In this document: piece after piece, positions 18,226-64,000 of the stretch
Numbering within the stretch: position 1 is the stretch's first letter
Layout of the letters: each line of letters opens with the position of its first letter
Assembly: GCA_023484515.1 (NCBI GenBank)
Contig: JAMDAY010000010.1
Span: forward strand, 5,131-69,130
DNA from: Patescibacteria group bacterium
GTDB lineage: Bacteria > Patescibacteriota > Doudnabacteria > UBA920
Length of the DNA stretch: 64,000 nt
Direction: 5' to 3'
The notes under the pieces: generated by a model
The model's database searches: none
The model's input: only the letters and a program-made list of their open reading frames with translations
Told to the model about the DNA's origin: nothing
Made by a program: the position numbers and the translations under genes

Positions 18226-19347
18226 CTATTTTTGAATCTTTAAATTGTATTTTAAGGCCGCGCAATAAACGTTTTCCGTTTCCTTAAGCATTTGCTCTTC
18301 CGTAAACAGCCTGCTCTGCTGCGACGATTTTTGCGACAAAGTTTCCGCTGCATTACGGTCCCGTATTACAGTAACCATGGCCCGGGCCAGAGCCCGGGGG
18401 TCTTGGGGCGGCACTAATATTGCGGCGCTGCCCAGGGCTTCCCGGTTGCCGCCGACATTTGCCGCAATTATTGGCAGGCCGGCCTGCATGGCTTCCAGCA
18501 GGGCATAGGGAAAGCCTTCCTTGCGCGAGGGAAGCACAAAAATATCCAGTGCCTTTAAATAGAGCCGCGCGTCCGGCACTTGCCCCAGCAGCCGGAAAGA
18601 GCTTTCCAATTTTAAATTTAAGATTTTAGATTTAAGATTTTGATATTCCGGGCCGCTGCCGAAAATTACGAATACCACTTTGTCCAAAATTTCCCGCGGC
18701 AAAGTTGCCGCGGCTTCCACCAAAATGTCCTGCCCTTTGGTTTTGTAAAAGTTGGAAGTGTTGCCCAATGTTATCACGTGCTGCGGCAGCCCCAGCCGGC
18801 TGCGGGCTTCGTCCCTGGTTAAAAACGGCAGGGGAGGGATGCCGTTATGGACCGTGCGAATTTTTTCTGGAGCAATCAGTCTTTTTTGCAGCGCGGAATT
18901 TTTATCGGAGTCGGAAACCGCAATAATATAGCTGCGGAACAAAGAGGCGAATTTTTCTAGCCAAAGGTAGAAAAACTTGGAAACAGGGGAGAGCGGCTCG
19001 CTGTAGCGGAAGCCGTGGGCGGTAAAAATAATTTTGGCTTTAACGAACGGCTTAACCAGGCTGCCCAAAAACCCCGCTTTGGTGGAATTTAAATGCACTA
19101 TGTCGGGTTTTAGGGAATTGGCCAGCCTGGCAATTTCCAAAATTGCCAGCAAGTCATGCCAGGGGCTAATGTTGCGCTTTAAGTGCCTAAGCCCGTAAGC
19201 CGGAATGCCAGCCTGCCTGGCTTTAACAAACAGCCCTTGTTCTTCCGTTCCGGCGGCAATGGCGCCTTTAAAATGCCTGGCCAAAGCCAGCACGTAATTC
19301 TGCGCGCCGCCCCCGTCGGCTTGGGTGATAATATACAGTATCTTCAT
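18226..19347 (-). CDS. glycosyltransferase family 4 (GT1-fold)
   Basis: EGFPYALLEAMQAGLPIIAANVGG is the GT4 C-terminal motif. The ORF is 373 aa. Confidence 0.85.
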   Translation of the reverse strand: MKILYIITQADGGGAQNYVLALARHFKGAIAAGTEEQGLFVKARQAGIPAYGLRHLKRNISPWHDLLAILEIARLANSLKPDIVHLNSTKAGFLGSLVKPFVKAKIIFTAHGFRYSEPLSPVSKFFYLWLEKFASLFRSYIIAVSDSDKNSALQKRLIAPEKIRTVHNGIPPLPFLTRDEARSRLGLPQHVITLGNTSNFYKTKGQDILVEAAATLPREILDKVVFVIFGSGPEYQNLKSKILNLKLESSFRLLGQVPDARLYLKALDIFVLPSRKEGFPYALLEAMQAGLPIIAANVGGNREALGSAAILVPPQDPRALARAMVTVIRDRNAAETLSQKSSQQSRLFTEEQMLKETENVYCAALKYNLKIQK

Positions 19348-19565
19348 ATGCTAATATTTAAAAAATTGGCGAATTCCTTATTTGAACCCCGCTCGAAACC
19401 TTCCGCTATATTTAATAATATGGAAAATGCCGCTCTTTTTAATTGATCTAATAGCGAGTAATCTTTTTGCAGTTTTGGACTGCTTTCTATTAATTTATAT
19501 ATTCTATTTGTTAAAATTCTGGATTCTTGCCATACCGGCACGTCCTCGAATTGGTTATAGTGCAT
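19344..19565 (-). CDS. four-helix-bundle protein (23S rRNA intervening-sequence-type, TIGR02436-like), apparently C-terminally truncated (73 aa)
   Basis: FEDVPVWQESRILTNRIYKL...LLDQLKRAAFSILLNIAEGFERGSNKEFANFL matches helices 1-2 of the family. Its stop overlaps the GT4 start (ATGA). Confidence 0.5.
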   Translation of the reverse strand: MHYNQFEDVPVWQESRILTNRIYKLIESSPKLQKDYSLLDQLKRAAFSILLNIAEGFERGSNKEFANFLNISI

Positions 19566-19670
19566 AAGTGGATTTTAATTTTTCAATTTTTAATCTTTCA
19601 ATCTTTCAATAATATCATTGTATATTAAAACCAATTGCTTTGAAAGTGAAACTATGGTAAAGTTGAATAT

Positions 19671-20693
19671 ATGAAAAACACGCCCAAAGTCGCGCTAATC
19701 ACCGGCATTACCGGGCAGGACGGGTCATACTTGGCGGAATTGCTGCTGTCCAAGGGATACGAAGTCCACGGGATAATGCGGCGCGCCAGCACTTTTAATA
19801 CCGAGAGGATAGAGCAAATTTACCAGGATCCGCACGAGTCGCATAAGAGGCTGTTTTTGCACTACGGGGATTTGGCGGACGCCTCCAATTTAAACCATCT
19901 GCTTAAAAAAGTTAAGCCTGACGAAATTTACAATTTGGGCGCGCAGAGCCACGTGCGCGTCAGCTTTGACATTCCCGAATACACGGCCAATGTGACGGCT
20001 TTGGGCACGCTGCGCCTGCTGGACGCCATCCGCGAAAACGAAATTCAAACCAGGTTTTACCAGGCCGGGTCTTCGGAAATGTTCGGCGACGTTTTGGAAA
20101 CGCCGCAAAGCGAAAGCACGCCGTTTAACCCGGCTTCGCCCTATGGCGCGGCCAAGGTATTTGCCCACCACATTTGCAAGAATTACCGCGCTGCCTACAA
20201 TATGTTTATTTGCAACGGCATATTGTTCAATCACGAATCGGAGAGGCGCGGCAAGACTTTTGTGACGCGGAAAATTACCACCGGCATTGCCGAAATTTTA
20301 GCCGGCCGGCAGGACAAAATCTATTTGGGAAATTTGGACGCCAAGCGCGACTGGGGCTATGCGCCGGAATACGTGCAGGCTATGTGGCTGATGCTGCAGC
20401 AGGACAAGCCGGACGACTACGTGATTGCCACGGGCGAAACCCACAGCATTAGGGAATTTTTGGAAGAGGCTTTCGGCTTGCTGGGCATTAAGGATTGGGA
20501 AAAATACATTGGCATAGACCCCAAATACTACCGGCCGCAGGAAGTTAATTTGCTTTTGGGCAATGCCGGCAAAGCCAAAAAAATCTTGGGCTGGGAGCCG
20601 AAAGTGAAGTTTAAGGACCTGGTGCGCATAATGCTGGAAGCGGATGTTAAGGAAGCAGGGATGCAGTTGAAAGATTTAAAGATTGAAAATTAA
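19671..20693 (+). CDS. gmd: GDP-mannose 4,6-dehydratase
   Basis: [19 protein letters not shown]...GDLAD...[14 protein letters not shown]...[13 protein letters not shown] matches GMD throughout. Confidence 0.95.
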
Positions 20694-20753
20694 AAGATTT
20701 ATAGGCTCATCAATTTTTCAATCTTTCAATCAGTAATCTTTCAATTAAAAACT

Positions 20754-62374: not shown

Positions 62375-62421
62375 TTGACGTTATAAAACATGAAGGGTGC
62401 TTTCCGGGAATATATGACAGT

Positions 62422-62515
62422 GATGACGCACATCTGGGATAAGCGGTCTTTAGATTGCCGGATAAGAATTATCATCAACCAAACTTAAGGAAAATTGTTC
62501 CAGATGTGCGTTATC
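62422..62515. repeat. MITE-like element copy 3 (inverted relative to copy 2)
   Basis: Terminal repeats GATGACGCACATCTGGGA / TTCCAGATGTGCGTTATC. The core is about 90% identical to the reverse complement of 18086-18179. It lies between the convergent holA and typA ends. Confidence 0.7.
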
Positions 62516-62580
62516 TCCCAAGGGAAACTTTAAGTCCCTATCCAATAAAAAACCAGCCATTGGCTGGTTTTTACTTAAAA

Positions 62581-64000
62581 TTATGCGTTGGTTTTTTCCC
62601 CGCGCCGGATTTTTTTGCGCTCAATGGAGGAAAGAATTTTCTTGCGGATGCGTACGGACAAAGGGGTAACTTCCACCAGTTCGTCGGGGCCAATGTATTC
62701 CAGAGCAAGATCCAAACCCATTTCCCGGGGAGGGGTTAAAATAAGGGCTTCGTCAGCGCCTTTTGAGCGCATGTTGGAAAGCTTTTTGGTTTTGCAGACA
62801 TTTATTTCCAAATCGGTATCCAAGGCGTTTTTACCAACCACCATGCCCTCGTACACTTCCACAGCCGGGCCGATAAATAAGGCGCCCCGTTCCTGGGCGT
62901 TGTTAAGCCCGTAAGCGTTGGAAACGCCGCTTTCCGCGGAAATTAAGGAGCCATGCTCGTTGCCCCGCAAGTCTATATCGTGCACCGGCTTATAAGAATT
63001 GAAGATATTATTTATAATTACCGTGCCCCTGGTGCGGGTTAAGAGCAGGTTTTTCAGGCCAATCAGCCCGCGGGTGGGGATTAAATATTCCGCATGGATT
63101 TCCCCGGAGGCGTCGGAATCCATGTGCAATAATTGCCCGCCCCGTTTTCCCAATTCCTCGATAATTACTCCCTGGTGTTCGCTGGGGACGTCAATGGTTA
63201 CGTCTTCGTAAGGCTCAAGTTTTTTTCCGTTTTCCTCGTGGTAGATTACCTCAGGCTGGCTCACTTGCAGTTCAAACCCTTCGCGCCTCATCGTTTCAAC
63301 TAAAACCGCCAAATGCAGTTCGCCGCGTCCGGAAACCAAAAACGAATCACTGCCTTGTTCCAGGCCTTCCACTTTCAAGGCCACGTTGGTTTCCAGTTCC
63401 TTAATAAGGCGGTCACGCAAATTGCGGGAAGTGACGAATTTTCCTTCGCGCCCGGCAAACGGGGAAGTGTTGACGCCAAAAGTCATCTTAATGGTCGGCG
63501 GCTCAATTTCCACGGGCGGCAAAGTTTGGGGATTTTGCGGATCGGTTAAAACGTCGCCAATATGGATGTCGTCAAAGCCGCCGATTGCTACGATATCACC
63601 AGCCACGGCTTCCGGCACATCAACTTGCTTTAAACCTTCGTACATCTGTAAAGAGGTAACGCGGGAAACGGTTCCTGTAGGGGAGGGTCTTGACCCTCCC
63701 TTATCAACGGGCGACTCAAGAGCCGTCCCTGCATTAGCCTTAATTAGCATGGCGTTTTGCGCCTGGCTGATTTTTCCGGCCTGGATTTTGCCAATTCCCA
63801 ACCGGCCTTTGTAATTGTCGTAAGCCAAAGCCAAAACCTGTAAGGCAAAAGGGTCGTCCGGCTGCACTTCGGGAGCGGGAATGTGTTGGATAATGGCTTC
63901 AAACAGGGGAGAGACGTCGGGGGATTTAAGATTTAAGATTGAAGATTTAAGATTTTCCAAATCATCATCAGCCAAACCGCGCACACCGCTGGCGTAAATA
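62581..64000 (-). CDS. typA: translational GTPase TypA/BipA, C-terminal two-thirds (5' end beyond window)
   Basis: Collinear with BipA from PLFEAIIQHIPAP through VNTSPFAGREGKFVTSRNLRDRL and SGRGELHLAVLVETMRREGFEL to the C-terminal ELVEVTP. The frame is open to the window edge. It contains two in-frame inserts, described in findings. Confidence 0.9.
   Translation of the reverse strand, partial: IYASGVRGLADDDLENLKSSILNLKSPDVSPLFEAIIQHIPAPEVQPDDPFALQVLALAYDNYKGRLGIGKIQAGKISQAQNAMLIKANAGTALESPVDKGGSRPSPTGTVSRVTSLQMYEGLKQVDVPEAVAGDIVAIGGFDDIHIGDVLTDPQNPQTLPPVEIEPPTIKMTFGVNTSPFAGREGKFVTSRNLRDRLIKELETNVALKVEGLEQGSDSFLVSGRGELHLAVLVETMRREGFELQVSQPEVIYHEENGKKLEPYEDVTIDVPSEHQGVIIEELGKRGGQLLHMDSDASGEIHAEYLIPTRGLIGLKNLLLTRTRGTVIINNIFNSYKPVHDIDLRGNEHGSLISAESGVSNAYGLNNAQERGALFIGPAVEVYEGMVVGKNALDTDLEINVCKTKKLSNMRSKGADEALILTPPREMGLDLALEYIGPDELVEVTPLSVRIRKKILSSIERKKIRRGEKTNA

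Follow-up and report, generated by a model that had tools for sequence, protein, structure and literature searches.

The stretch of DNA analyzed here, referred to as the window, comprises 64,000 nucleotides (nt) of contig JAMDAY010000010.1 (positions 5,131 to 69,130, GenBank assembly GCA_023484515.1) from a Patescibacteria group bacterium of the Doudnabacteria lineage. The window has a guanine-plus-cytosine (GC) content of 46.5%, and most of its genes lie on the + strand. It harbors pentose-phosphate and glycolytic genes, type IV pilus genes, holA, typA, and a large polysaccharide cluster including gmd, fcl, the glycosyltransferase genes GT4, GT2, and CgeB-like, wzm/wzt, NeuB, and others. The closest other homologues of the window TypA are at most 78% identical, with Candidatus Doudnabacteria among them; a cyanobacterial origin, which the look of the repeats might suggest, is rejected. 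Between these genes, at their ends, and in frame inside some of them lie short tandem arrays of 7-9-nt units, which are the subject of this analysis. A search of the whole window against Rfam at gathering thresholds placed no family on the repeats and returned only three tRNAs and no rRNA.

Arrays were detected with Tandem Repeats Finder (TRF), and those with a period of 7-9 nt and at least three copies were counted. The window contained 20 such arrays, compared with 0.37 in third-order Markov simulations and 0.40 in 60-bp block shuffles (maximum 2). The arrays are 23-45 nt long, with units of 7-9 nt in about 3-5 copies (2.7-5.4 by TRF), and the main arrays show 70-96% matches at no more than 5.4 copies. 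An earlier annotation made from the letters alone (the sequence-only reading) had listed part of them; TRF recovered every listed array within a few bases, the peptides quoted for them were identical on translating the sequence, and about ten further arrays were found. The additional arrays include 2150-2172, 3066-3099, 8104-8138/8153-8184, and 18211-18249, as well as 24017-24045, 24068-24103, 24932-24964, and 25352-25388 of a TACTAAA/TTTAGTA family. The same reading had called for a check of the assembly, and independent assemblies agreed base for base across the arrays. A Logan contig from run SRR10252151 carried 12,542 bases with about ten arrays that were identical to the window, and the contigs of SRR10267473 and SRR10252151 were identical over a 1,565-base overlap including the typA array. 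Collapse or expansion of the repeats as an assembly artefact is thus unlikely. In a cluster look-up for strain variants, each protein was the sole member of its 90% identity cluster, and no copy-number variant is on record in these assemblies and clusters. The arrays are genuine and non-random.

The units recur as had been described, but they form several families rather than a single one. Family A, GATT[G/T]AA(A), accounts for about ten arrays between 18.2 and 64 kb. Family B (CCAATTT) was found at 23267 and 52713, and family C (CAAATAT/CAAATTA) at 56497 and 57726; the latter two arrays had been grouped with the GATTGAA repeats and fall outside that family. The remaining families are D (TACTAAA/TTTAGTA), E (AACAAGT), and F (TGACAAAAG). 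Families B, C, D, and F have 2-5 arrays each.

The arrays are concentrated at gene boundaries. Intergenic DNA, which makes up 7.4% of the window, holds 55% of the array bases, and wherever an array extends into such DNA, the distance to a gene boundary is 0-15 nt, with several arrays supplying or overlapping a stop codon. They occur in both orientations relative to the neighboring gene and are as frequent after stops as before starts. On the + strand, a short 8-nt array of the AGAACAAT type (2150-2172) spans the stop of the open reading frame (ORF) 1662-2159 and the transketolase start, family A heptamers at 53126-53162, with stops in three frames, lie 11 nt upstream of a sugar-transferase start, and another family A array (54479-54523) begins 2 nt past the sugar-transferase stop. 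Two family C arrays frame pilC on the same strand: the CAAATAT array at 56497-56519 runs into its start codon, and the CAAATTA/TTCAAAT array at 57726-57770 begins at the final base of its stop codon. On the - strand, family A octamers at 19573-19610 lie 8 nt upstream of a truncated four-helix-bundle gene (19344-19565) and read as forward GATTGAAA in the sense of that gene.

Several arrays are copies of one another. The array at 54479-54523 has its partner in the one at 18211-18249 at the 3' end of GT4: positions 54475-54513 are 90% complementary to 18211-18249, the irregular order of the units included, and each array lies at a gene 3' end in the same orientation relative to the gene. The GT4 and typA arrays are 88% identical to each other, and hairpin arms are duplicated at 87-88% identity. 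Whole arrays, irregularities included, have been copied between loci.

Hairpins are built from inverted pairs of arrays. The pair between gmd and fcl, which the sequence-only reading had pointed out, is present at 20667-20701 and 20710-20746 (family A, + strand); the hairpin 20667-20746 folds at -20.9 kcal/mol (z -3.4), and its left arm provides gmd with its last eight codons and stop (LKDLKIEN*). An inverted TGACAAAAG pair at 8104-8184 (+ strand; arms 8104-8138 and 8153-8184) is located between a stop and the following start and folds at -18.7 kcal/mol (z -3.0); this unit family was also found in L163, the continuation of the same genome beyond typA, and in the related loci L167, L166, and L001. 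The third pair, at 24014-24108 (+ strand), lies upstream of wzm and forms a gene-less TACTAAA/TTTAGTA hairpin (-27.5 kcal/mol, z -3.8) whose ends are CCCTACTAAA...TTTAGTAGGG. A small excisionase-family helix-turn-helix gene (23720-24013) is located directly upstream of it. Three pairs of the window and four of its relatives were folded; they lie directly after stop codons, and six of the seven reach -19 to -31 kcal/mol with z-scores of -3.0 to -6.4. The 3' end of the AI-2E transporter gene is an orthologous position at which three of four genomes have an array hairpin (L163 6275-6372, L166 7400-7490, and L167 8495-8625), each time built from a different unit (GGAATTA/TGAATTT, AATTAAC, or TACTAAA). 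At this site, the hairpin structure is conserved while its sequence turns over.

The finding that the same kind of repeat DNA lies both in spacers and in frame within ORFs holds, and the repetition inside genes is more than a shadow of the encoded peptide. Each in-gene peptide was re-encoded 20,000 times using the codon usage of the window. At all eight in-gene sites, the observed match fractions (0.60-0.92) exceeded the means of the resampled sequences (0.42-0.56), with P values of 5e-5 to 0.016. Peptide and codon usage thus do not account for the in-gene periodicity, which belongs to the DNA itself. Within genes, the coding strand of a family A array is open in one frame and no other. In the CgeB-like array at 22979-23020, two units in frame 0 read GATTTAAA and GATTCAAA in place of GATTGAAA, with TTA or TCA replacing TGA, so the in-frame TGA has been removed at these units, in line with selection against stop codons. 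In addition, three 7-nt units make 21 nt, or seven amino acids, so reading the unit in three frames yields a heptad-like, LK-rich peptide suited to an amphipathic helix. The arrays offer a clean example of repeat DNA coexisting with coding sequence in a stop-free frame, where it fits a seven-residue, helix-like peptide.

The sequence-only reading had proposed that the in-gene copies are lineage-specific peptide inserts exapted from repeat DNA. No genome-specific insert was demonstrable at any of the eight in-gene sites, and in ortholog alignments of TypA and GT4 the orthologues carry the same residues, the outcome that this reading had itself named as refuting. For the most part, the in-gene arrays overlie helices, linkers, and tails that already exist in related proteins. 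In GT4, family A heptamers (18609-18644, - strand) encode YQNLKSKILNLKL, which corresponds to the helix 235-244 of a Rossmann beta-alpha-beta unit between strands 224-229 and 251-255 in the AlphaFold2 model (predicted local distance difference test, pLDDT, 95.9). The window segment GSGPEYQNLKSKILNLKLESSFRLLG and the GNGPEFKNLKLKIKNLKLEGIVLTPG of its orthologue in the syntenic locus L001 are equal in length, and in the L001 gene a different array, (TTTTTAA)5, occupies this site. Of about 120 Patescibacteria orthologues, nearly all contain the segment, in many cases as NLK[S/L]KI[L/K/E]NLKLE. At the GT4 3' end, the 39-nt family A array (18211-18249, - strand), the reverse-complement copy described above, is translated for seven codons (YNLKIQK) up to the stop TAG; the corresponding tail is disordered in the model, with residues 370-373 below pLDDT 50. 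At C-terminal tails such as that of GT4, some array DNA is genuinely translated.

TypA shows the same pattern. Its family A heptamers (63923-63956, - strand) encode ENLKSSILNLKS, modelled as helix 175-183 with a local pLDDT of about 86-90. The segment had been described as an insert relative to BipA homologues, and it does add eight residues relative to Escherichia coli BipA, but it is not lineage-specific, being carried by 120 of the 120 closest homologues. The residues ENLKSSILN are identical in TypA proteins that are 68-78% identical overall, and the coding DNA of three relatives differs there by synonymous changes. DNA periodicity at the site is 0.83 in the window and 0.72, 0.66, and 0.48 in the relatives, with the last value (L165) close to the synonymous expectation and the peptide nearly constant throughout. 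The peptide is kept while the DNA periodicity decays, which indicates that selection now acts on the peptide. A separate extra segment relative to E. coli BipA, at residues ~251-268 in domain II, has low model confidence and is unrelated to the array; it accounts for most of the difference between the 633 amino acids (aa) of the window TypA and the ~613 aa of its relatives.

The remaining sites agree with this picture. GT2 site 1 (52502-52540, + strand, family A, VIERLKIENLKIIT) covers a canonical helix and strand of the GT-A fold; compared with solved GT-A structures, gaps do not exceed one residue and the window sequence is never longer. GT2 site 2 (52713-52748, + strand, family B, IQISNIQFPISK) lies in a variable loop; of the six homologues aligned, four have up to 2 aa more there, one has 3 aa fewer, and one is not comparable. 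In the CgeB-like protein, site 1 (22979-23020, + strand, family A octamers, DLKIERLKDSKIED) falls in a variable linker and exceeds the L001 orthologue by only 2 aa, and site 2 (23267-23299, + strand, family B heptamers AATTTCC x4.4, NFQFPISNLQS) is equal in length to that orthologue, with NLQ conserved. The array-encoded tail of gmd is the same length as in L001, and both proteins have 340 aa. In transketolase, AACAAGT x4.9 (3066-3099, + strand) is in frame and encodes EQVTSNKEQVTS in an inter-domain linker, with no gap or length change relative to human transketolase (codon-resampling P=1e-4). The transketolase (2165-4063) is a short enzyme of animal-like type. Among solved structures, the best match, over the full length, is 6rjb (637 residues, E 4e-188), titled only 'Transketolase', which we take to be the human enzyme; bacterial-type transketolases match the window protein only in part. 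For annotation, these results advise caution: repeat-encoded residues should not be taken for lineage-specific inserts.

A gmd search of genome and metagenome contigs yielded L001 as the single syntenic relative (gmd 80% identical); the other gmd loci are at most 71% identical and come from many phyla, and the loci of this search were reused in a background set of 165 loci (2.2 Mb, many phyla). L165-L167 are relatives with syntenic typA regions, L167 being the nearest relative in the set. L165-L167 and L001 contain arrays of a like kind, mostly at gene boundaries, and the TGACAAAA (family F) and TTTAGTA (family D) families are common to the window and L167. Strict family A dimers occurred in this genome only among the 165 loci. 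Arrays of 7-9 nt with other units were dense in loci from Nostoc, Verrucomicrobia, Planctomycetes, and metagenome contigs of unknown origin, and 89 background loci had none. These results indicate that the unit families are lineage-specific and that the phenomenon of 7-9-nt arrays is general and sporadic. The array density of L119 (15 arrays in 12 kb, 58% GC), L147/L148, L013 (Verrucomicrobiae), and L049 (Nostoc) is above that of the window; in such denser loci of other phyla, the arrays are often adjacent inverted pairs with GC-rich units. A scan of viral contigs for the three-unit family A pattern gave 12 sporadic matches, including giant-virus metagenome-assembled genomes with long arrays, and was uninformative.

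A further arrangement encloses a gene between complementary arrays. A second copy of the TACTAAA/TTTAGTA hairpin (24928-25391, + strand), located between wzm and wzt, which adjoin each other in L014, holds in its loop an ORF (24947-25354) of the GxxExxY family (PF13366/TIGR04256). Its arms, 24928-24964 and 25355-25391, are 37 nt long and 84% complementary, with a flank duplex of -41.5 kcal/mol. The hairpin 24014-24108 equals the left arm joined to the right arm, and is thus a gene-less copy 900 nt upstream of the GxxExxY element. Complementary array flanks were found for all seven GxxExxY genes checked in different Patescibacteria genomes (39-100% identical, varied gene contexts). This set consists of the window gene and six others (39-86% identical) obtained by a homologue search and contig look-ups, namely L163 1517-1998 and those in L180, L182, L183, L184, and L188. 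Their flanks are tandem 7-8-nt units such as TACTAAA, TACGAAA, TACAAAT, TACGAAT, and CACGGAT. The inverted-repeat scores were 11-26, whereas the highest score among 200 shuffles of each element was 10-16; three cases, those with the lowest scores, did not exceed their own shuffle maximum (P ~0.005-0.01), and 30 of 33 control genes in the window scored 9 or less. The flank duplexes reached -27 to -48 kcal/mol in the six elements computed. The L180 element has the same CCCTACTAAA...TTTAGTAGGG ends as the window element, but lies downstream of pilB, and in L182 the gene stands between two complete hairpins rather than within one. The orthologous elements of L184 and L188, whose proteins are 60% identical, have near-perfect stems made of different units.

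Four-helix-bundle genes show related framing. In L188, a full-length four-helix-bundle (S23p) gene is framed by complementary arrays in the same way as the GxxExxY genes. The window gene 19344-19565 (S23p/23S_rRNA_IVP, TIGR02436) has 73 aa covering 61 of 109 profile positions, overlaps the GT4 start, and looks like a decayed remnant. For this truncated gene and the one in L166, a family A array was found shortly before the start, on the 5' side only. A literature search on GxxExxY function found no paper. We tentatively suggest, while holding the idea more doubtful than not, that the array-armed hairpins form an undescribed family of selfish cassettes of the same type as intervening sequences, residing in mRNA rather than in rRNA, with a loop gene of the GxxExxY PD-(D/E)xK family or the four-helix-bundle family, and that gene-less hairpins and solo arrays derive from them by miniaturization or decay. 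In that case, the tandem-repeat families in intergenic DNA of this clade would be footprints of hairpin cassettes, and the GxxExxY family would gain a role in the mobility or processing of its own hairpin. Through the framing by complementary arms, the origin of the repeats becomes directly testable, as does the role of these two very common protein families, and this observation may matter more than the repeats themselves.

Taken together, these results make it probable, in our judgment, that the arrays represent the known class of dispersed heptanucleotide-type repeats, generated by slippage and copying between loci, with a structural hairpin role outside genes and with in-gene arrays kept where their translation fits. 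Arrays would arise and be homogenized by replication slippage together with copying or gene conversion between loci. Outside genes, the role is most likely structural, the arrays forming stems of putative terminator-type or RNase III-type hairpins that could act in RNA processing or stability; some of these may be selfish cassettes, and some families may have been spread by, or be remnants of, cassettes of the type of 23S rRNA intervening sequences. Inside genes, arrays would persist only in a stop-free frame where the three-frame translation suits an existing need of the protein, and selection at the protein level would then retain the peptide even as the DNA periodicity decays.

Several points weigh against this interpretation. 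A U-run follows the L166 hairpin 7400-7490 and, in part, 8104-8184, and none follows 20667-20746 or 24014-24108; with U-runs behind only some hairpins, a terminator role is not general. The inverted pair at L166 5335-5430 folds no better than its shuffles (z -1.5), and the unpaired single arrays at 53126, 54479, 56497, and 57726 fall outside a hairpin account. Family A is linked to selfish cassettes only weakly, through one truncated four-helix-bundle gene here and one in L166, both with an array solely on the 5' side. The in-gene arrays may stem from an ancient insertion fixed clade-wide or from an in-situ homogenization of already quasi-periodic helix-coding sequence. The survey of this genome covers about 75 kb, including the window and the ~9.4 kb beyond typA in L163.

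Other explanations for the arrays were weighed against the same data. Mobile repeat DNA inserted in frame and exapted as lineage-specific peptides, in the manner of the Rickettsia palindromic elements, would account for the presence of one unit family in both intergenic DNA and ORFs, for periodicity at the DNA level, for the eight residues that TypA has beyond E. coli BipA precisely where the array lies, for the 2 aa by which CgeB-like site 1 exceeds L001, and for the array-encoded C-terminal tails of GT4 and gmd. However, orthologues match the window proteins in length, and often in residues, at most in-gene sites, all 120 closest homologues have the TypA segment, which carries synonymous changes, and the GT4 and GT2 arrays encode core elements of secondary structure; for recent inserts this explanation is largely refuted, and overall we consider it quite unlikely. 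A by-product of protein composition, in which LK-rich amphipathic helices written in AT-rich codons only look periodic, could draw on the clade-wide frequency of NLKLKIENLKLE-type helices at the GT4 and TypA sites and on the fact that such a peptide, written in the most AT-rich codons, is automatically 7-nt periodic. Nevertheless, synonymous-codon resampling in this 46.5% GC window rejects it at all eight sites and excludes it as a sufficient cause, the same units occupy untranslated spacers, and L165 encodes a near-identical TypA peptide at the near-random periodicity of 0.48, so that this explanation is scarcely credible.

Units that are not multiples of three could also serve as phase-variation contingency loci, switching surface-polysaccharide glycosyltransferase genes by slippage on the model of neuO, whose product NeuO is phase-variable (PMC13001214). 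Three glycosyltransferase genes of the polysaccharide cluster do carry 7- or 8-nt arrays, intergenic arrays adjoin start codons, and the heptamer copy number of the Coxiella intervening sequence varies among strains (PMC4990558). Against this, the arrays are short (at most 5.4 copies) and mostly imperfect (70-96% matches), they also occur in typA and transketolase, which are housekeeping genes, three independent assemblies show no difference and each protein is alone in its 90% identity cluster, and across genomes of 50-80% identity the peptides of TypA and GT4 remain stable, all of which leaves phase variation very unlikely. By analogy with roles considered for other repeats, the arrays might instead be cis-regulatory sites for a lineage-specific RNA- or DNA-binding protein, or translation leaders of the S1 type. 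Arrays abut the starts at 8190, 19565, 24109, 25394, 53173, and 56518, Shine-Dalgarno-like motifs precede only 14 of 60 window genes, whose leaders are mostly A/T-rich, TTTTTGTCA arrays occur at the orthologous AI-2E 5' leader in two genomes, and unit families are common to several genomes. On the other side, the arrays occur in both orientations and as often after stops as before starts, the unit differs at orthologous sites even though the hairpin is kept, and no candidate binding protein was identified; Shine-Dalgarno motifs are lacking equally in genes with and without arrays, a comparison to which the rarity of the motif leaves no discrimination. A cis-regulatory function is therefore unlikely, and dispersed repeats with a structural role outside genes remain our preferred reading.

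Other repeats of the window stand apart from the tandem arrays. A hairpin element of ~95-105 nt is present in three copies (9259-9360, 18086-18179, and 62422-62515), in which a CTGGGA...TCCCAG core is enclosed by a terminal stem of 18-23 bp and which fold at -40 to -46 kcal/mol (z -5.7 to -8.5); the copies at 18086-18179 and 62422-62515 are 93% complementary to each other. One spacer with a copy of this element, searched against Rfam at E<=1, matched no family, and the element may resemble a miniature inverted-repeat transposable element or be a structured RNA. Two 36-nt palindromes, 832-867 and 1604-1639 (94% identical, AGTGAAAAA-TTGTACAATTGTACAA-TTTTTCACT), flank a PaaX-like regulator gene (923-1597); they lie outside the tandem-repeat families and are probably operator sites of that regulator. 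Additionally, the spacer 52160-52358 contains an inverted repeat with 24-nt arms (52176-52199 and 52314-52337, 92% complementary, 114 nt apart), and the spacer 15573-15676 contains a AAAATTCCGCCGAAATTTTAC/GTAAAATTTCGGCGGAATTTT hairpin.

In comparison with known systems, the arrays share single features with two well-known cases of repeats in coding DNA. The Rickettsia palindromic elements are in-frame selfish DNA of ~100-150 bp that adds a peptide absent from orthologues. As in those elements, repeat DNA occurs here between genes and in frame in conserved genes; unlike them, the arrays are tandem and of 30-45 nt, and there is no change of length at most sites. The heptanucleotide repeats of neuO in E. 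coli K1 are perfect, numerous, and hypervariable and form an on/off switch. The window likewise has an in-frame heptanucleotide array in a polysaccharide enzyme gene, with three units making a seven-residue peptide repeat, but its arrays are short, degenerate, and identical across assemblies, and the peptide is evolutionarily stable.

The gene-bearing hairpins resemble the intervening sequences of 23S rRNA. In Coxiella burnetii, RNase III cuts the 28-bp terminal stem of the 23S intervening sequence, whose loop contains an S23p ORF preceded by GACAGAT heptamers in tandem and in variable number (PMC4990558). The cassettes described here similarly have a 20-37-bp terminal stem around a small ORF of ~120-135 aa, tandem heptamers just upstream of the ORF start, gene-less hairpin copies, and ORF families found in, or annotated from, intervening sequences (the four-helix-bundle gene of L188 and the truncated one of the window; S23p = PF05635). 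They differ in lying between protein-coding genes (wzm-wzt, downstream of pilB, and others) rather than in helices of 23S rRNA, in having mostly a GxxExxY ORF of the PD-(D/E)xK family, and in building both arms from tandem units. By this likeness, the framing of GxxExxY and four-helix-bundle genes has the anatomy of a 23S rRNA intervening sequence, with a putative excision by RNase III.

As a whole, the arrays come closest to the dispersed heptanucleotide-type repeats and belong to them. This known class, whose function is unexplained, includes the short tandemly repeated repetitive (STRR) sequences of cyanobacteria and the TAACTGA and GGGAATC repeats. In many bacteria, heptamers outnumber all other long simple-sequence repeats; they are dispersed with about four units preferred, lie within 50 bp of ORF ends, and are occasionally in frame, with no function established (PMC4692102, PMC4679880). 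TAACTGA repeats were described from marine Beggiatoaceae (PMC4679880), and a protein-binding or S1-type translation-leader role was once proposed for them; GGGAATC/GGGGAYT repeats are known from Xanthomonas and Nostoc (PMC4692102). Full-text literature searches returned no report of such repeats in Patescibacteria. Like these repeats, the window arrays are tandem units of the 7-nt class in about 2-6 copies, belong to a few dispersed families, are in excess in non-coding DNA within tens of bases of starts and stops, overlap some stops, are in frame in a minority of cases, and have a sporadic, lineage-restricted distribution and no established function. They differ in their host, in AT-rich units that may also be 8 or 9 nt long, in the many inverted hairpin pairs, and in in-gene copies over core helices and strands conserved across the clade, not at protein ends alone. 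These results extend the dispersed heptanucleotide repeat class to the candidate phyla radiation.

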